From a virus (taxonomy: Duplodnaviria; Caudoviricetes), in the IMG/VR virus record IMGVR_UViG_3300023119_000004: a stretch of DNA of 64,000 bases. One strand, 5' to 3'. This document shows, piece by piece, positions 4,091-56,597 of this stretch. Position 1 is the stretch's first letter. Every line of letters starts with the position of its first letter. The translations under genes and the position numbers were made by a program. A model generated the notes under the pieces. It saw only the letters and a program-made list of their open reading frames with translations, had not been told where the DNA came from and searched no databases.

Positions 4091-4714
4091 CTAATTGTGA
4101 TTAGGAAATATCTTTTCTTGTTGATCTTTGAATATTGGCATTACAATATTTCTAGATTGTGCAAATGGTGTTGAACGACCACTAAAGACAAACCCAACAC
4201 TAGTTCTTGGTTCTATTTCTTTTGGTGGAATCCCTCTATGAATAAATTTACTTGGAAAAACAATGCAACGGCCTTCTTTATATAATACAGACTTGATCAT
4301 TTTACCACCGTTATCTGGGTTATCATCCCAAAAATCCATTCCACTGTCTCCGCTGACTAGATATACCATAGTATAAGCAGGTACATCTTCGCCGCTGTCG
4401 ACGTGCAATCCACCGACTAGATTCTTAGTTGTAATGTTTACTTGTACTTGATTTAATTGTAAGTCACCAATGTTATCACCTAGTTTATCTTTCTGTCCAT
4501 TGAATGCACTCCATACTGCTTTTAATTGCCATGGAGCATTTTCAAGTTCTTGGTGTGTCCATTGATTACTAAAAAATTGATGCCCTTGATACGGACCTAA
4601 TCCTCTATGTCCAAATGACACCTTAGTATGTGGAATTTCTGCAACTACTTCGTTATGCAACCAACTAGGTACAATATCATCTAATACTATAATGTCATCT
4701 GGATTATATTTCAT
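4091..4714 (-). CDS. 2OG-Fe(II) oxygenase-like protein
   Basis: HVD...H (LHVDSG, FIHRG) and distal R in a DSBH-like pattern. Confidence 0.7.
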   Translation of the reverse strand: MKYNPDDIIVLDDIVPSWLHNEVVAEIPHTKVSFGHRGLGPYQGHQFFSNQWTHQELENAPWQLKAVWSAFNGQKDKLGDNIGDLQLNQVQVNITTKNLVGGLHVDSGEDVPAYTMVYLVSGDSGMDFWDDNPDNGGKMIKSVLYKEGRCIVFPSKFIHRGIPPKEIEPRTSVGFVFSGRSTPFAQSRNIVMPIFKDQQEKIFPNHN

Positions 4715-4717
4715 TAA

Positions 4718-5131
4718 TTACAAATCGCCATCTTTACGATTTTCACTGTAATAAACATCAAACTCGCCACCAGGGTAACGTGCTTTAAGTTTGTTTACGT
4801 TTTCTGCAACTACCTCGTTAGGGTCCAAGCCAAGTGCCCTACAAGAATTAATCCAATACCACATAATATCGCCAAGTTCTCGTTTGCAATGAAAGACAGT
4901 TTCATCATCCATTGGTTTACCTTGGAAGATACATTTTTTAACAATTTCACTAAACTCTCCTCCTTCGGACGCAATACCGATTGCACCTGTTAGCAATAAT
5001 GCTACATTAACATTTGGGTTATTTGCTTCAATGTCTTTTGCCCTATAAAACATTTCAGACAATTGATTACTTTCTTTTGATGTGACTTGTTCTACAAATT
5101 CTTTGTATTTGTTTAAATCTACGTTACTCAA
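4718..5131 (-). CDS. MazG-like nucleotide pyrophosphohydrolase
   Basis: EGGEFSEIVKK, ELGDIMWY, NVNKLKARY motifs. Confidence 0.88.
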   Translation of the reverse strand: MSNVDLNKYKEFVEQVTSKESNQLSEMFYRAKDIEANNPNVNVALLLTGAIGIASEGGEFSEIVKKCIFQGKPMDDETVFHCKRELGDIMWYWINSCRALGLDPNEVVAENVNKLKARYPGGEFDVYYSENRKDGDL

Positions 5132-5142
5132 TTTAACCTCTT

Positions 5143-5580
5143 TTATCTTGGTCTGTCTGCAAAGTCCTCAGGACGAGGACCACCGCTATTAAAGTCAGTA
5201 TTAGTTCCGATTTGCAAATCTTCTGGCTCTTCTTCTTGCCAGGCTAATATTGCATTTACATCAATTAGTCTAACTTCAATTTCTCCCATATCGGGATCAT
5301 CTAAAATGATACCACGTGACCAACGTCCGTGTTCAACATAGATCCAGTTACCCACAGCATAGGGGTCTTTATTTTCATGTCCGATAGCATAAATTTTACA
5401 CCATCTTGGACGGATGCCTGCTTCTTGGCCGTCATCACTTGCGATAATAATACCACCTTTAGTAGTACGTTCTCCAAAGTTCATGTCATAAGCAAGTACG
5501 CCATCATGTATCGGTCTAAGTTTGCCAGTTGCCCTAGTTTTTAACTTAGGACCGGCTCCTAACATCTGCGTATCCATCAT
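5143..5580 (-). CDS. groES: GroES/Cpn10-like co-chaperonin (T4 gp31-like)
   Basis: LRPIHDGV, mobile loop ERTTKGGIII, ILAW C-terminal strand. Confidence 0.8.
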   Translation of the reverse strand: MMDTQMLGAGPKLKTRATGKLRPIHDGVLAYDMNFGERTTKGGIIIASDDGQEAGIRPRWCKIYAIGHENKDPYAVGNWIYVEHGRWSRGIILDDPDMGEIEVRLIDVNAILAWQEEEPEDLQIGTNTDFNSGGPRPEDFADRPR

Positions 5581-49351: not shown

Positions 49352-49714
49352 GTGGAAATTTTCCTATTTTTAATGATAAAACACGCTATTGTTGACCTTG
49401 GTTTTCAACCATTTGGTCTCGGTAGTTCCAAAAAATATTATTTTGGTTGGCCCGCTCACAAACAACATTATGTCCCACACGGACTCTTAACCGTGCTTGT
49501 AATGGCGTCTTACACGCACATAAACGTCGCTGTAGCGTTGGGAATACTAGATTATATACTACACTGGCATACAGACTTTACTAAGACTAAAATACGTAAT
49601 TATTTTGAATGGACTAGCAAAGACAGACAGTTTTGGATTTTGAATGCTGTAGATCAAATACTACACTTTACTGGATACTATATAATTGTGTTGATTGCTA
49701 CTTCACAAATTTAA
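49352..49714 (+). CDS. DUF3307-like His-rich membrane protein
   Basis: KHAIVD, H...H, HWHTD, DQILH motifs in TM helices. Confidence 0.75.
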   Translation: MEIFLFLMIKHAIVDLGFQPFGLGSSKKYYFGWPAHKQHYVPHGLLTVLVMASYTHINVAVALGILDYILHWHTDFTKTKIRNYFEWTSKDRQFWILNAVDQILHFTGYYIIVLIATSQI

Positions 49715-51065
49715 ACGCAAACTTACCGCCAATACGTGAACTATAATAATTCTTAGAACCATCTAGTGCAACAGTACCTTGGAAGTTTGGAGGGTAAACA
49801 GCCTGGAAGCCAGTTACACGAATGTCGTCACCCTTCTTACCAACTTTGGTATAAAGTTGTATAATACTTGCTGTGTTTAATAATGAAATTGCTTCTGTAG
49901 AAAATTTTGGATTTTCGTTTACCTTGAGTGCAACCTTTTTAGCCAACGCACTTGTGATAGCATATCCGGTATTAAACCCTTGAACAGTCATATCAAAGTT
50001 AACACCTTCAACCATTTTAGTTGCTTCGTCACTCATGTTTTCAAAGTCTTGTTTACCTTGCTTCATATACTCGTCTGCTTCTTTTCTTAGTGCAGGAGTT
50101 GATAACTGAAACTTTTCGCCTAAATCAAAAGGTGCTTCTTTTGCACTCTTAGTTGCAATAGTTGTAACTATGTCTGCAACAAACTTTGTATTTGACATTA
50201 GTTCGGCATTGTCTTTGTTCTTTTGTAAAGAGTCATACAAGTTCTTTGCACTAGCAGATGCACCAGCGCCACCTTTAGAACTAATACCAATCTCTTTGCC
50301 GTCTGGAGCAAGGAACACGCTATCGACTAAGTTGTAGTTCATTGCCATAGGCCAAAAGATATTAAGGTCTTTCCAGTTAGCGCCACCGGCTAACTCTTGT
50401 CTTGCCTGTTCGGCGTCACCTTGTACAAGGCCACCCATCATAGCAACCGGACCCATAATTTCACCAAAGTAATCTCTAATAGATTCTAGTTTTTCAATCT
50501 GCCCTGGGAACTCAGGCATTTGTCCATTAGATGCTGATTCAAGTGCAGTTACAAGAACTTCACCTTCCTGGCCAGCATTAGTTCTTACAGTTTGAATAAT
50601 CTGTTCTGGACCTTTAAATTTGTTTTGAGATTTAATTAGTGTTTGTGGATCTAAACCAGTATCAATCTTTAACGCACCCTTGGTACCTAATTTCCAACCT
50701 GATGGAATTTGACTGTTACCCCAAACACCCATTAGGTCTGCACCTACTTGTCTAAGATATCTACCCCAGTAAATGTCTTTACCATCGCTAGTTCTAATCT
50801 GTGCAATACCAAATGCTAGTGTTCCTGCGTTAGCAGTATTAACCCATTCAATTTTAGCATTGTTATTTTTTTCAAACTCTGCAATGGCTTCGTCACGTTC
50901 TTCTGCTGTAGCAAATTTACCACCTTGTGAAAGATCTGGAATTGCAATCGCTTGTACGAACTCTGCCTTTTCGCCATTGTCGTGGATATATGGCTCTCCA
51001 GGTTTACGCCCGAAAATGCCTTTAGACTCTATTACTTGTGTTTGTTTAAATTCGAAAAACCTCAT
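49698..51065 (-). CDS. Hypothetical late protein (possible internal head protein)
   Basis: MRFFEF N-terminus; CATAAATA late motif at 51074-51081. Confidence 0.55.
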   Translation of the reverse strand: MRFFEFKQTQVIESKGIFGRKPGEPYIHDNGEKAEFVQAIAIPDLSQGGKFATAEERDEAIAEFEKNNNAKIEWVNTANAGTLAFGIAQIRTSDGKDIYWGRYLRQVGADLMGVWGNSQIPSGWKLGTKGALKIDTGLDPQTLIKSQNKFKGPEQIIQTVRTNAGQEGEVLVTALESASNGQMPEFPGQIEKLESIRDYFGEIMGPVAMMGGLVQGDAEQARQELAGGANWKDLNIFWPMAMNYNLVDSVFLAPDGKEIGISSKGGAGASASAKNLYDSLQKNKDNAELMSNTKFVADIVTTIATKSAKEAPFDLGEKFQLSTPALRKEADEYMKQGKQDFENMSDEATKMVEGVNFDMTVQGFNTGYAITSALAKKVALKVNENPKFSTEAISLLNTASIIQLYTKVGKKGDDIRVTGFQAVYPPNFQGTVALDGSKNYYSSRIGGKFAFKFVK

Positions 51066-51076
51066 AGCACTAGTAT

Positions 51077-51772
51077 TTATGCTATTTTTGGAAATAATGC
51101 GTTAGTGCAGAATTCGTCAACATCTGCTTCATTAAGTCCTAATGACTTCATAACTCTAGGTGTATGTGGATTTTGTTGCTGGTTATGGCAGTAGTAGTTT
51201 TGAGCACCTGCTGTAATATCTACACTAGCATTGCCTGTATACTCAGGAACACTATCAAACCATACACGCAGGTTTTCTAAAGCAAGATCTACAATAGCAG
51301 TTGCTTCTTCTTCTGTGCGAACATTACCTGCGGCAACCATTCCTGGTGAAAAGATGTTCTGTGCCCATTCGGGTAGTTCACGTTGTTTACTAGGAATAAA
51401 ATCTTTAACAGCATCTAAGTACCATTCTACAAGAGGATGTTCTTCACCGCCTGAACTTGCTGAAAAATCATGAAATGCACCTGTCATTTTATTCTTACCT
51501 GCAATAACATCAAAGCCGTAAATAGGACCATCATTTGATAACACAGGAAAACAACATACGTGCATCATCCACAGTCCGTGCGAGTCTCTTGCGTCTACAA
51601 CATCAATGTGTGCTCTGCGTACATGATCATTTGCCCATACTCTGTTGATCCAACCGTTCTCAGGCTGATTAAATTTGTTTAATCCTTTTTCTTCTATTTC
51701 AGTGGCTTTCTCATCAAAGATGTTTAATATTTCATTTTGGCATTCAATTAGTTTATCCCAAATGACACTCAT
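51077..51772 (-). CDS. pcyX: Ferredoxin-dependent bilin reductase, PcyX type
   Basis: NRVW, RRAHID, LWMMHVC.FP, GFDVIAG, AFHDFS, YCHNQQQNPHT; start at ATG 51772 gives an ATGA overlap with the halogenase stop. Confidence 0.88.
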   Translation of the reverse strand: MSVIWDKLIECQNEILNIFDEKATEIEEKGLNKFNQPENGWINRVWANDHVRRAHIDVVDARDSHGLWMMHVCCFPVLSNDGPIYGFDVIAGKNKMTGAFHDFSASSGGEEHPLVEWYLDAVKDFIPSKQRELPEWAQNIFSPGMVAAGNVRTEEEATAIVDLALENLRVWFDSVPEYTGNASVDITAGAQNYYCHNQQQNPHTPRVMKSLGLNEADVDEFCTNALFPKIA

Positions 51773-53289
51773 GATCTGTTTCCCCAATCTCTATTATACA
51801 TACCAGGTGTTGTCCAATCAACATCGTCTTTGTTCATCTTTTCTAAAAGTTCCATGGCTTTGTCTTTTTCTAATCCTGGTGATGCTGTTTTAATTCCTGT
51901 TGTGTTAAGCCATAGTTTCCAATTCATCTCAGCAAAGATTTCTGTATTACGGGGGAAAAACTGATAGTCATCGTCCCACATAACTGTAGGTGTATAGTTA
52001 TGTTTAAAGTTTGTTGCAATCTCTGTAAGTTTATCTGTTTCCTTAAAGTTTTTATAAACGTGTTCCCAAAACTTACCTTTACGTGGATTATTAAAATAAT
52101 GTAGTGCTACAAAGTTCATAGTATCTTCATAGACTGCTGTCATATCTTCGTTAAACTTTAATCTATCTTCTTCAGTATAACTTAGTTTTTCTAAAACTTT
52201 TAGGCCACTAGCACCAATTGTAAGTAATGCAAGTCCTGTTGATTCTAACGGTTCAATAAATCCACTAGCAAGTCCTACACTAAAACAGTTGCCTCTCCAG
52301 TTGTTTGCATTATATTCTGGCTTGAAAGGAACATGATTAAACTGTCCTGTTCTTAGTCTGTGTTCACCCCAATGCTGTACAAAGAAATCTTCTGCTTCTT
52401 GTTTAGTGGTAAGTTCACTGTTGTAACATAGTCCACTACCAATACGATCTTTAACAGGTGTTTTCCAAATCCAACCTAGGTCACACGCCTGTGCAGTAAC
52501 GTATGGAAGTTGTACTTCATCTTCTGTTTCGTAATCTATTTGACTTGCTACTGCGGCATTAGTAAACAGCATATGACTTCTGTCAATCCATTTACTGTCG
52601 GGCAATGCATTTGAAAGTAAACGTTTAAAGCCAGTACAGTCTACAAAAAAATCTGCTGTAACTTTTGTACCGTCATCTAATGTTACATATTCAATAACAC
52701 CATCAGTAACCTTTGGAGCATCAATGTGTTTTTGAATATGTGTTAGTCTTGGATACTTCTTATTAAGATAATCAGATAAGAAGTTTGCTAGTTTAACAGC
52801 ATCTAAATGATATCCTACATGAGCAGTACCACCGCAAGGTGTTGTGTTATTTGGAATCTTTTTATCTACAACAGAAACTTTATGCCAAGCAATATATTTT
52901 TCTAATTCAACCTCATTAATGCCGCCGTCACGAGCAAGGTCAATGCTATCAAGTGTTCCGTGTTCTGTATGTGTTACAGGAAAAAAGAATGGTTGCCAAA
53001 TGTTAATGCCGTCGCCCTTCCAGTTTGGAAAGTAAGTCCCTGTTTTAATAGTTGCGTCACAAGCCTTTGTCCATAGTTCTCTAGGAATATTACAATCGTC
53101 TAAAAAATGATCAAACCCTAAAATAGTTGCTTCACCTACGCCAACAATAGGAACATTAGGACTTTCAATAAGTGTGATTTGTGTTTCGGGTAAGTTTGAT
53201 AATGCATAAGCGGCCGTAAGCCAACCAGCACTTCCTCCACCTACAATACAAATGGACCTAGCACGGCTACGACCTACTACTTCAGTCAT
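51769..53289 (-). CDS. Flavin-dependent halogenase (PrnA/tryptophan halogenase family)
   Basis: GGGSAGW, VGVGEAT, ATIKTG (catalytic Lys), GWIWKTP, GFIEPLESTG. Confidence 0.9.
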   Translation of the reverse strand: MTEVVGRSRARSICIVGGGSAGWLTAAYALSNLPETQITLIESPNVPIVGVGEATILGFDHFLDDCNIPRELWTKACDATIKTGTYFPNWKGDGINIWQPFFFPVTHTEHGTLDSIDLARDGGINEVELEKYIAWHKVSVVDKKIPNNTTPCGGTAHVGYHLDAVKLANFLSDYLNKKYPRLTHIQKHIDAPKVTDGVIEYVTLDDGTKVTADFFVDCTGFKRLLSNALPDSKWIDRSHMLFTNAAVASQIDYETEDEVQLPYVTAQACDLGWIWKTPVKDRIGSGLCYNSELTTKQEAEDFFVQHWGEHRLRTGQFNHVPFKPEYNANNWRGNCFSVGLASGFIEPLESTGLALLTIGASGLKVLEKLSYTEEDRLKFNEDMTAVYEDTMNFVALHYFNNPRKGKFWEHVYKNFKETDKLTEIATNFKHNYTPTVMWDDDYQFFPRNTEIFAEMNWKLWLNTTGIKTASPGLEKDKAMELLEKMNKDDVDWTTPGMYNRDWGNRS

Positions 53290-53821
53290 TATCGACCTCC
53301 ATCATTTCTTTGAATGTTTCTGTAGCAAAGTCAAAACATATCTTTGCTTCTTCAGCCATATCATCGTTCAACTGTTCTCTTATGGCTGTTTTCAGTTCGT
53401 CAACAGGAGCATCAAATTGATACAATCTTCCTTCTCCTGGAATTTTCTTTTTAATCATTTGTCCACCGCTTAGGTCACCCATGTGTCTAACATATACGTG
53501 AGCCATGACTTTATCTGGATCTCCCATAATTGTTCTCATATGTTCTAGATACTTTTCTGTTACTTTTAAAGTTTTAGGCATTTCTTGTTTAGGCCATAAC
53601 TCTTTAAAATCATCTAGTATGCTCGGGGAACGTCTAATAGCAGGATGAGGCAATAAGCCATGTGTCATTGCTATTGCTTCTAAAATATTGTATTGAATAT
53701 GTTGATTATATAAAAATGTTGCATAAAGTTCTTTGTCAATTTTACCTGACATTAAAACTTTTACAAATGCTTGGCGTTCTGCGTTCTTATGGTGTTCCCA
53801 CGTTGCTTCTTTTAAGTTCAT
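53282..53821 (-). CDS. hemO: Heme oxygenase (phage HemO/Ho1 type)
   Basis: LKEATWEHH..AE, AHVYVRHMGDLSGGQ, EEAKICFDF. Confidence 0.92.
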   Translation of the reverse strand: MNLKEATWEHHKNAERQAFVKVLMSGKIDKELYATFLYNQHIQYNILEAIAMTHGLLPHPAIRRSPSILDDFKELWPKQEMPKTLKVTEKYLEHMRTIMGDPDKVMAHVYVRHMGDLSGGQMIKKKIPGEGRLYQFDAPVDELKTAIREQLNDDMAEEAKICFDFATETFKEMMEVDND

Positions 53822-54126
53822 TCTTTTTCCACTTTGATCTGCAATGGGAATCCGTTTGCTCTGCTCAAAGTGGTTGCTTCTACGCTTTTTTGTTCTGCAA
53901 TTTCAAATGCGTAAACGCCAACTACTGCACTTCCATCTTCATGAATTTGTAGAGTTAGATTTTTTGCTGTGTCAACAGAATGCTTAAAAGTAGTTACTAG
54001 CACATCGATCACGAAATCCATTGGTGTTTGGTCATCATTAATAAAAATAACTGAGTACCTTTCGGGCTCAGCAATTTTTATCTTAATCTTTTCGTCAATT
54101 TGTACATCCATATTATTACTTATCAT
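53818..54126 (-). CDS. clpS: ClpS N-degron adaptor
   Basis: YSVIFINDDQTPMDFV, IHEDG, AEQK, GFPL; start moved to ATG 54126 (GGAG RBS). Confidence 0.9.
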   Translation of the reverse strand: MISNNMDVQIDEKIKIKIAEPERYSVIFINDDQTPMDFVIDVLVTTFKHSVDTAKNLTLQIHEDGSAVVGVYAFEIAEQKSVEATTLSRANGFPLQIKVEKE

Positions 54127-54154
54127 TGTATGATCTCCTACCAGTAAATAATGA

Positions 54155-54176
54155 TAGTGGGGATTGCTCCCCACTA
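54155..54176 (-). terminator. Perfect 9-bp hairpin with GCAA tetraloop after hsp20 (weak U-tract)
   Basis: TAGTGGGGA-loop-TCCCCACTA. Confidence 0.6.
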
Positions 54177-54193
54177 CCGACCTTTTAAGTGTA

Positions 54194-54643
54194 TTACTTA
54201 ACTTCGATTGATCTTGCTTTTTTAGCCTCTGGAATAATTCTTTCCAAAGCAATTCTAAGCAAGCCATCTTTTAGTTCAGCACCTTGTACTACTACATCGT
54301 CTGCAATAGTAAATGATTTAGTAAAGTGCCTTTTACTAATACCTCTGTATTGTACACCATCCGCTTCATCGTCAGTTTTTGACTCTTGGATTGATTTAAC
54401 AGTTACCACACCGTCTTCGTATGATACGTCAATATCCTTTTTGCCAAAACCAGCAAGTGCTAATTCAATATCGTAAGTATAGTCGCCTGTTTTTACAATA
54501 TTGTATGGCGGATAGTTAGTGTTAAAAGTAGGTGCATTGAAGAAGTCGTCTTCAATCATTCTTTCGAATCTATCAAAGATAGGATCGAACCCTACTGATA
54601 CGGGTCTTAGTTGGTTAAAGATTGATAGTGATTTGTTTGTCAT
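54194..54643 (-). CDS. hsp20: Small heat-shock protein Hsp20 (IbpA-like)
   Basis: SVGFD, YPPYNI, LALAGF, YRGISKRHF, A.LKDGLL.I. Confidence 0.95.
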   Translation of the reverse strand: MTNKSLSIFNQLRPVSVGFDPIFDRFERMIEDDFFNAPTFNTNYPPYNIVKTGDYTYDIELALAGFGKKDIDVSYEDGVVTVKSIQESKTDDEADGVQYRGISKRHFTKSFTIADDVVVQGAELKDGLLRIALERIIPEAKKARSIEVK

Positions 54644-54713
54644 TTGTTTTCTCCTTATTAAGCAAGTTGTTTGTCATGTAAGACCTATCAAGCATCTTAC
54701 AATCTTATTTATC
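54644..54713 (-). promoter_or_regulatory. hsp20 leader: late promoter GATAAATA, covarying hairpin, ROSE-like SD-occluding hairpin
   Basis: UGUAAGA-UGCUUGAUAGG-UCUUACA then CUUGCUU-AAU-AAGGAG; same architecture as the dnaK leader. Confidence 0.7.
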
Positions 54714-56597
54714 TACCTCTTCAAACTCGGCGTCTACAACGTTTTCATCTTTCTTAGATGTTGTTTCTGCTTCTTCTGAAGTGTTAGATTCTTGTTGTGC
54801 CTTGTAAACTGCTTCACCTAACTTCATTGCCACTTGTGATAGTGCTTCTGTTTTAGATTTAATATCTTCAACATTGTCACCTTTAAGTGCTTCTTGTAAG
54901 TTAGTCTTAGCATCTTCAATTGATGTTTTAATATCTTCCGATACTTTATCACCGTGTTCTTTTAACTGTGATTCAACTGAGTGTACAAGACCGTCAGCAT
55001 TGTTTCTAGCATCTACGGCTTCTCTCTTTTGTTTGTCAGCCTCTTTATTTGCTTCTGCATCTTTGACCATTTGTTCAATTTCTGCATCACTCAAACCGCC
55101 GTCTGATTTAATAGAGATTGTTTGTTCTTTGCCTGTGCCTTTATCTTTTGCTGATACGTTAACAATACCGTTTGCGTCAATATCAAATGTTACTTCAATT
55201 TGAGGCATACCTTTTGGTGCTGGTGCAATACCTTCTAGATTAAAGAGACCAAGTTCTTTATTATCTACAGCCATTTCACGCTCACCTTGTAATACCTTAA
55301 TAGTAACTGCTGATTGATTATCTTCCGCAGTACTAAACACTTGTGATTGTTTAGTTGGGATTGTTGTATTCTTTTCAATTAGTTTAGTAGTAACACCGCC
55401 TAGTGTTTCAATACCCAATGAAAGCGGAGTAACGTCAAGTAGCAATACATCTTTAACATCACCACTTAATACACCTGCTTGAATTGCGGCACCTAGTGCT
55501 ACAACTTCATCTGGGTTAACACCTTTGTTTGGATCTTTACCAAAGAATGTTTTAACAGTTTCTTGTACCTTAGGCATACGTGTCATACCACCTACTAGTA
55601 CAACGTCTGTAATATCACCTTTGCTTACACCTGCGTCTTTAAGAGCAGTTTCACAAGGTTTAATTGAACGTTGGATTAGTTCGTCTACAAGACTTTCAAA
55701 CTTAGCACGAGTAATTTTTAAATTCAAGTGCTTAGGTCCAGAAGCATCTGCTGTAATAAATGGTAGACTGATGTCAGTTTGTGTTGTGCTTGACAATTCA
55801 ATCTTTGTTTTTTCAGCCGCTTCACGTACACGTTGTAGTGCTAGTTTGTCTGTTGAAATATCTACACCAGACTCTTTCTTAAACTCGTCTACAATGTATT
55901 GTGTAAGAACAGCATCAAAGTCTTCACCACCTAATGCTGTGTCACCGTTTGTTGAAAGTACTTCAAATACTCCGTCACCGAGGTCAAGTACTGATACGTC
56001 AAATGTACCACCACCTAAGTCATACACAACAATCTTGCCTGACTCTTTTTTATCTAGTCCGTAAGCAAGTGCCGCCGCTGTTGGTTCATTTACAATACGT
56101 AAAACTTCTAGTCCTGCAATTTTACCTGCATCTTTAGTTGCTTGACGTTGTGCATCGTTAAAGTATGCTGGTACTGTAATAACTGCTTGTGTTACAGTTG
56201 AGCCTGTATACTTTTCAGCAGTTTCTTTCATCTTGGTTAATACTTCTGCTGATACTTGTTGTGGGGAAAGTTCTTTACCTTTTGTTTCTACCCACGCATC
56301 ACCGTTCTTTGCTTCTACAATTTTGTATGGAAGCGTTTTAGCATCACGTGTGATTTCTTTTGATTTAAACTTACGTCCAATTAGACGCTTTGACGCATAG
56401 ATTGTGTTCTCTGCGTTAGTAACTGCTTGACGCTTTGCTGATACACCTACAAGTGTACCATCGTCAGTATAGGCTACAATACTAGGTGTAGTTCTATTAC
56501 CTTCTACGTTTTCAATTACTTGGGGATCTTTGCCGCTTAGTATAGCAACACATGAATTTGTGGTACCCAAATCGATACCAATAACTTTATTAGCCAT
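54705..56597 (-). CDS. dnaK: Chaperone DnaK (Hsp70)
   Basis: [44 protein letters not shown]; start at ATG 56597 after AAGGAG. Confidence 0.98.

Follow-up and report, generated by a model that had tools for sequence, protein, structure and literature searches.

Bilin cassettes and halogenases of marine phages

Among the closest described systems to the locus considered here is the two-gene hemO–pcyX cassette of marine T4-like phages (Ledermann et al. 2016, 2018; PMC11480375 and PMC13446030), which pairs a heme oxygenase (HemO) with the bilin reductase PcyX; a known three-gene variant of this cassette adds alaS and not a halogenase gene (PMC11480375). HemO and PcyX are also encoded, in this order, on the minus strand between positions 51077 and 54126 of a 64,000-nucleotide (nt) stretch of DNA, hereafter the window, which belongs to the IMG/VR virus record IMGVR_UViG_3300023119_000004 (Caudoviricetes), a 77,990-nt fragment with a CheckV completeness of 21%. 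Unlike the two-gene cassette, however, the window locus carries a 1.5-kb flavin-dependent halogenase gene between hemO and pcyX that overlaps both of them, and a sister subclade further adds a gene of the CN_hydrolase family. The sole cultured relative with pcyX, Pelagibacter phage Mosig, has adjacent hemO and pcyX genes and no halogenase. A search of the literature found no paper that links PcyX or pelagimyophages with a halogenase or describes the three-gene layout, which is thus undescribed as far as can be told.

Halogenases related to the one in the window are known from phages as well as from bacteria. VirX1 (6QGM) and the cyanophage halogenases resemble the window enzyme in having a viral tryptophan-halogenase fold, a conserved Lys and Glu and a marine T4-like phage as their source; they differ from it in sequence (about 31% identity) and in clade, and, in the loci surveyed, their genes are often tandem paralogues that never stand beside hemO or a ferredoxin-dependent bilin reductase (FDBR) gene, the halogenase gene of cyanophage Syn10, for example, lying among tail-fibre-like genes. 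Thal, RebH, PrnA and PyrH are the best sequence and structure matches (E-values of 1e-61 to 1e-48; template modelling (TM) scores of 0.83–0.88 over the full length) and have GxGxxG, WxWxIP, the catalytic Lys and the Glu of EPLES in common with the window enzyme, whereas the identity to these bacterial tryptophan halogenases in structural alignments is only about 25% and the window gene lies outside any secondary-metabolite cluster. A halogenase of the same family and from the same broad group of phages is encoded by Pelagibacter phage HTVC008M; however, it is 27% identical to the window enzyme, its gene lies between the terminase subunit genes and next to a phytanoyl-CoA dioxygenase gene, and no pcyX was found in that phage. 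The idea that the window is DNA of HTVC008M itself was rejected on account of this low identity and the different gene position.

Gene order and expression at the locus

What the window contains is a real three-gene form of the hemO–pcyX bilin cassette of phages, both conserved and expressed. As for the function of the inserted gene, the reading preferred here, with a probability of about one half, is that the halogenase is an independent auxiliary gene fixed at a plastic junction and equipped with a small substrate of its own. From position 54126 down to 51077 of the minus strand, four open reading frames (ORFs) follow one another without a single intergenic base. First in the run is clpS (53818–54126; 102 aa; Pfam ClpS, 2.1e-27), whose stop codon shares an ATGA with the start of hemO (GAATGAAC); the gene for the short phage heme oxygenase (53282–53821; 179 aa; Pfam Heme_oxygenase, 1.2e-22) in turn overlaps the halogenase gene by 8 nt (ATGACTGA); and the halogenase gene (51769–53289; 506 aa, 1,521 nt; Pfam Trp_halogenase, 1.7e-89) ends in a shared ATGA of 4 nt (TCATGAGT) that also starts pcyX, the gene for an FDBR of the phycoerythrobilin (PEB)-forming phage type (51077–51772; 231 aa; Pfam Fe_bilin_red, 2.8e-17). 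The Pfam scores of all four products are well above the curated cut-offs, and both the ORFs and the underlying sequence agree with a preliminary description of this DNA, in which the genes had been presented as one coupled minus-strand run with these overlaps. The GC content is about 37% throughout, and no compositional break was seen at the locus. Such overlaps are ordinary for this genome: counted from crude longest-ORF calls, 15 of the 69 same-strand junctions in the window show one of 1, 4 or 8 nt, and 16 more junctions have gaps of no more than 10 nt.

The locus stretch is present in six salt-marsh metatranscriptome runs, in four of which contigs identical to the window bridge gene junctions, including contigs that cover 51168–53765 (X19), 51775–54156 (X20) and 52170–54235 (X21). 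Both halogenase junctions are bridged by contigs from these RNA libraries, which can also hold DNA, and a contig that crosses two genes is no proof of a single transcript.

Distribution of the three-gene layout

Relatives of this PcyX occur on 255 IMG/VR stretches, and in the nearest 80 of these, which were used for the comparison of loci, the order hsp20/(dnaK)/clpS/hemO/[X]/pcyX is conserved; the variable place X is taken by a halogenase gene in 19 of the nearest 80, the remaining 61 being free of it. With the halogenase as the query, linkage to the cassette is seen in IMG/VR for each of the 13 loci that reach 50% identity and for none of the 67 at 37% or less; similarly, 14 of 14 relatives at 45% identity or more in metagenomes of the Joint Genome Institute (JGI) are linked, against 0 of 66 below 45%. 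In a large protein collection, the series is graded, as representatives at 50%, 47%, 46% and 45% identity lie between hemO and an FDBR gene and others at 45%, 44%, 43%, 42% and 39% do not. In the surroundings of 80 cellular halogenase loci, neither hemO nor pcyX was found, and the nearest cellular homologues are at most 36% identical.

Altogether, IMG/VR, metagenomes and assemblies yield at least 35 contigs with the hemO–halogenase–pcyX layout, which fall into three deep subclades; the preliminary description had left it possible that the linkage is unique to this genome, and this survey of hemO–pcyX neighbourhoods finds that it is not. Subclade A comprises halogenases about 66–72% identical to the window enzyme. 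Subclade B, at about 50–54% identity, has an additional nitrilase-superfamily CN_hydrolase gene between the halogenase gene and pcyX, and this gene overlaps the halogenase stop codon by 4 nt (L023:4102-4887, L028:3989-4756, L043:3990-4763 and L167:3010-3771). Subclade C is the most divergent in both proteins (halogenase 44–47% and PcyX 50–55% identical) and has curli-type CsgF/CsgG genes downstream.

Two side observations concern individual contigs of these groups. The CsgF/CsgG genes of subclade C directly follow the FDBR gene in L163 (8259-9545) and come one gene later in L169 (8823-10469) and L174 (8757-10211), with FecR accompanying them in L163 and L174; curli genes have already been reported in pelagimyophages (PMC7029224). 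On the metagenome contig L180 (4488-5178), the pcyX that follows the halogenase gene matches in two pieces (4488-4673 and 4684-5178), which may reflect a frameshift or an assembly error.

Evolutionary history of the linkage

The linked halogenases share one origin. In a quick tree of 81 sequences they all form one clade with a Shimodaira–Hasegawa-like approximate likelihood ratio test (SH-aLRT) support of 99, and in a more careful tree of 48 sequences the clade is recovered with an ultrafast bootstrap (UFBoot) support of 100 and an SH-aLRT of 99; the enzyme thus belongs to a clade of its own and does not group with scattered phage halogenases, which was the other outcome contemplated at the outset. 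All of 200 bootstrap trees (100%) require a single change of state between unlinked and linked, and the three deepest branches of the linked clade, whose context was checked, are all linked. The nearest sister clade adjoins genes for 2-oxoglutarate (2OG)-Fe(II) oxygenases, and the genes of further sister halogenases have tail-fibre genes around them or are flanked by clpP and a DNA ligase gene. Among the loci surveyed, no independent recurrence of the linkage was seen in cyanophages, other phages or bacteria. Given a single origin followed by inheritance, all of the comparative evidence amounts to one evolutionary event with no independent replication.

The tree of PcyX has another shape, in which lineages free of the halogenase separate the halogenase-bearing loci into three groups and a minimum of three changes is required. 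The spacers of 160–630 nt in halogenase-free loci hold no halogenase relics at E-values up to 1.

Some observations were also made on halogenases outside the linked clade. Tandem sets of two or three halogenase paralogues are frequent on marine phage contigs, and in HTVC008M as well as in the nearest sister clade a gene for a 2OG-Fe(II)/phytanoyl-CoA dioxygenase comes immediately before the halogenase gene, a pairing of halogenase and oxygenase that may recur in phages (for both observations, L096–L162 from IMG/VR, L172:4430-6389 and L175:4418-6479). Several unlinked phage halogenases (L165, L171, L173 and one more record) lie among genes of tail-fibre type, namely Peptidase_S74 proteins, gp37/gp38-like proteins and giant proteins that exceed 3000 aa, and some of these tail-region halogenases are the sole gene on the opposite strand.

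The halogenase protein

The halogenase scores 301.2 bits against PF04820 (cut-off 21) over residues 13–468 and matches PHROG 2928, annotated as tryptophan halogenase, at 3.5e-99. The motifs named in the preliminary description can all be read in the translation, with GGGSAG at residues 17–22, ATIKTG with its Lys at K82, the WxWxxP motif as GWIWKTP at 272–278 and FIEPLES as FIEPLESTG with E346. K82 aligns with the Lys of Thal in ASYKMA, and FIEPLESTG with FVEPLESTG; K82 and E346 presumably correspond to K79 and E346 of PrnA (PrnA numbering). Across 64 relatives, there is no variation at G18, G19, W23, K82, G272, W273, E346, P347, L348, E349 and S350 and next to none at W275, and P278 is invariant in the 12 closest. 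The best relatives of solved structure are Thal (1.5e-61), RebH, VirX1 (1.5e-53) and PrnA.

A structure predicted with AlphaFold2 (mean predicted local distance difference test 93.7; predicted TM score 0.92) has the two-module fold of the family, in which a box that binds flavin adenine dinucleotide (FAD) is joined to a C-terminal helical substrate module. Foldseek superposes this model on Thal, PrnA and RebH with TM scores of 0.86–0.88 over about 530 columns, and such full-length agreement makes the protein a complete flavin-dependent halogenase of the free-substrate type. The enzyme looks catalytically competent. Just four residues, W135, P180, L182 and K296, do not vary within the linked clade and are seldom met elsewhere. 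Neither a flavin reductase gene nor a 2Fe-2S ferredoxin gene was found in the 78-kb record, an absence that is uninformative because the record is a fragment.

HemO and PcyX

Both flanking enzymes appear intact. PcyX matches the solved PcyX EBK42635 (5OWG_A) at an E-value of 9.2e-82 over residues 3–230, the matches to PcyA chains being 1e-11 or weaker, and its residues D57, M69, H71, C73 and D88 align with D55, M67, H69, C71 and D86 of 5OWG (the native number is that of the query minus 2), which bears out the correspondence given in the preliminary description. All five are invariant in 70 distinct relatives, with or without a halogenase. Asp55 separates PEB-forming PcyX from PcyA, which forms phycocyanobilin (PMC11480375), and the Asp, His and Asp of PcyX are the equivalents of Glu76, His88 and Asp105 of PcyA (PMC13446030; their roles are also treated in PMC11480375). 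The window protein is accordingly classed, by its residues, as a putative PEB-forming phage FDBR of the PcyA/PcyX lineage, for which a four-electron reduction of biliverdin to PEB is predicted.

HemO reaches a profile score of 81.2 bits (PF01126; cut-off 23) and has the motif HKNAE, with H11, as well as a distal GDLSGGQ. From the reading of HKNAE, H11 is taken to be the proximal heme ligand. H11, G119 and G120 are invariant in 35 relatives and again in 69 relatives, H11 being the same with or without a halogenase. A complex of HemO, PcyX and the halogenase, predicted twice with custom alignments, scored 0.00 each time, which speaks neither for nor against binding.

A plastic junction

The hemO and pcyX genes had been described beforehand as normally adjacent. 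In the window, they are not, since the 1,521-nt halogenase gene intervenes, and among 69 distinct related loci they are adjacent (60 nt apart or less) in just 25, the junction being occupied in the other 44. The inserts include small ORFs of 69–84 aa, a 2OG oxygenase gene, two genes of 305 aa with no assigned function and, in some loci, a trio of genes for a CN_hydrolase, a second heme-oxygenase-like protein and a 2OG oxygenase. A hypervariable region is known from pelagimyophage genomes (PMC7029224). One contig, L027, was noted for a CN_hydrolase gene (1707-2618; 54% identical) that lies between hemO and pcyX with no halogenase; it is followed by a divergent second heme-oxygenase-like gene and a 2OG-Fe(II) oxygenase gene, all of them before pcyX.

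On the other side of hemO, clpS and hemO are tightly joined in 63 of 67 distinct related loci. We know of no role of ClpS in connection with bilins or heme cleavage, and clpS is as fixed to hemO as the halogenase is; adjacency at this locus therefore need not mean a shared function. Residues that track the presence of the halogenase were also sought in the neighbouring enzymes. In PcyX, a single column does so, by a conservative exchange among L, I and V; in HemO there are six such columns, compared with ten in ClpS, which served as an unrelated control. As neither enzyme exceeds the control, the signal in the columns is one of shared ancestry and not of co-adaptation.

Possible roles of the halogenase

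An ancestor of a T4-like phage clade related to the pelagimyophages captured the halogenase gene once between hemO and pcyX, and it has since been inherited together with hemO, with few later losses. From what is known of the family, the enzyme would use reduced FAD (FADH2) from the host, O2 and halide to produce hypohalous acid, and K82 and E346 would direct this acid to an electron-rich carbon of the substrate, bound by the divergent C-terminal helical domain. If the halogenase is an independent auxiliary gene with its own small substrate, as for other halogenases of marine phages such as VirX1, the two flanking enzymes would continue to turn heme into biliverdin and this into phycoerythrobilin, and the position of the halogenase gene between hemO and pcyX would be a frozen accident at an insertion-prone junction, not a step in a pathway. 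The halogenating activity, the class of substrate and the independence from the bilin pathway are all parts of this account that we infer.

Several observations weigh against such an accident. Every member of the linked clade with readable context lies exactly between hemO and pcyX, in all three deep subclades, and this placement has been kept despite the fast turnover of the junction and the rearranged order of dnaK and hsp20 upstream; on both sides of the halogenase gene, start and stop codons overlap or abut in all three subclades. In the tree of HemO, one clade of 27 sequences (support 90) takes in subclades A and B together with two representatives of subclade C out of three; 24 of the 27 have a halogenase, and the three without it look like later losses, one of them still having the CN_hydrolase gene. 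This clustering implies that hemO and the halogenase largely travelled together and that the halogenase was seldom lost. The other inserts at the junction are enzymes as well, as would befit a tailoring island. In addition, the H-x-F motif, which stacks on indole, keeps an invariant F101, and its His is replaced by Q99 in the window enzyme and by S, A or E in relatives; the 127 C-terminal residues (380–506) have no sequence match to any PDB chain, even at an E-value of 10. Given the lost His and the unmatched C-terminus, tryptophan is not an obvious substrate either.

A serious competitor, although it is not the reading favoured here, is that the halogenase is a tailoring enzyme of the heme/bilin pathway that acts on biliverdin, on a dihydrobiliverdin intermediate or on PEB, in which case infected cells would produce a halogenated linear tetrapyrrole. 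An exclusive, clade-wide and long-lived placement between two pathway genes, the monophyly of the linked halogenases, the rarely broken co-inheritance with hemO, the overlaps retained on both sides, the RNA-library contigs across both junctions, the gathering of other candidate tailoring enzymes at the same place (CN_hydrolase, 2OG oxygenases and a second heme-oxygenase-like gene) and substrate-binding parts unlike those of tryptophan halogenases (W135, invariant in this clade alone, the lost His of H-x-F and the unalignable C-terminus) are all in its favour. Nevertheless, the association arose only once, clpS–hemO adjacency is equally conserved, no compensating change was seen in PcyX or HemO, and most cassettes do without a halogenase, as the 61 of the nearest 80 PcyX loci and the cultured phage Mosig illustrate; moreover, no gene for a flavin reductase or a ferredoxin was found in the 78-kb record, itself a fragment. 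The chemistry is a further obstacle, because bilins have no free pyrrole C–H, the aromatic positions that flavin-dependent halogenases usually attack, which would leave a methine bridge or a vinyl or ethylidene carbon as the site of halogenation. We know of no precedent for methine or vinyl halogenation on a bilin and of no flavin-dependent halogenase that acts on bilins, and the literature search likewise turned up neither a bilin-acting enzyme of this kind nor a natural halogenated bilin. In favour of such chemistry, some flavin-dependent halogenases do act on olefins, as reported for AetF (PMC9772203).

The preliminary description had proposed that the enzyme placed between the two steps could halogenate a bilin. 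Its gene identities, motifs and coupling hold; however, the step from being placed between the genes to halogenating a bilin gains no specific support, because the linkage has a single origin, clpS is just as fixed, overlaps are common, the junction is plastic and no residue of PcyX or HemO tracks the halogenase. In its widest form, in which a clade of abundant marine T4-like phages, with SAR11 or other Alphaproteobacteria as the probable hosts, would encode a pathway from heme to biliverdin and through halogenation to a halogenated PEB-type bilin, with the junction as an evolving tailoring island that diversifies the linear tetrapyrroles of phages, the proposal is doubtful. An unrelated insertion is judged slightly likelier than the halogenation of a bilin.

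It is improbable that the halogenase plays a different kind of role, either by halogenating Trp or Tyr in a peptide or protein or as a flavin monooxygenase or binding protein that does not halogenate at all. Several related phage halogenases do lie among tail-fibre genes and others beside 2OG oxygenases of the protein-hydroxylase type, the run itself starts with clpS after chaperone genes, and the canonical region that binds the amino acid tryptophan is unrecognisable. Against this, no member of the clade departs from the motifs that define halogenases, among them WxWxIP, to which the prevention of monooxygenation is attributed in this family; the modelled fold is the complete one of free-substrate tryptophan halogenases; and no gene for a carrier protein or a peptide precursor was seen near the locus.

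Neighbouring genes and signals

Upstream of the run, on the same minus strand, are hsp20 (54194–54643; Pfam HSP20, 8.7e-16), which is syntenic in nearly all related loci, and dnaK/Hsp70 (54705–56597), which was identified from its translation and from synteny by tblastn, Pfam HSP70 being recorded for homologues. Their order varies, as dnaK–hsp20–clpS is found in the window, in subclade C and in L067, and hsp20–dnaK–clpS in L002, L004 and L012; in L184, the closest relative of the window, dnaK comes immediately before clpS, and many loci have no dnaK here.

A pattern scan located, purely as a match to a consensus, a GC-rich hairpin with an 11-bp stem and a T-rich tail, similar to a terminator, between hsp20 and clpS (54153–54178, minus strand). 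Three terminator-like sites were found in the region compared with 3.4 expected from shuffled sequences, and taken alone the hairpin lacks significance; it might serve as a terminator or attenuator that parts the four-gene run from the chaperone genes. The depth of the RNA contigs is nominally higher upstream of it, contig depth being a poor measure. A scan of the region for sigma-70 promoters, with 12 sites against 17.8 expected, was uninformative.

Directly after pcyX comes a gene for a protein of 455 aa (49698–51065, minus strand), which has no match in Pfam, NCBIfam or PHROG and is placed by Atlas in clusters of hypothetical viral proteins alone; homologues follow pcyX in many loci, and further downstream in the window are several small genes and clpP. 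The family to which it belongs is hypervariable, with lengths of 365–559 aa and a conserved N-terminus MRF(F/Y)EFK (e.g., L007:5708-7297, L028:5465-7063 and L043:5472-7151), and the combination of a conserved N-terminal tag with a variable body recalls the capsid-targeting sequences of T4 internal proteins. The host of the phage is probably a SAR11-type bacterium.

Significance

Two questions meet at this locus, namely what use a phycoerythrobilin pathway is to phages that infect heterotrophs, whose hosts have no phycobiliproteins, and on which natural substrates the many halogenases of marine phages act; the locus joins both in one conserved and expressed cassette. The flanking enzymes have in vitro assays and a crystal structure, and a link between the halogenase and bilins is thus readily testable. 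If the link is true, flavin-dependent halogenases would gain a new type of reaction, and its product would represent a new class of pigment or metabolite; a viral enzyme of this kind would have a natural substrate assigned to it for the first time, and no halogenated bilin is known to have been described before. If the link is false, the locus would stand as a documented case of a tight, long-lived and coupled gene order that has been maintained in T4-like phages without a shared pathway.

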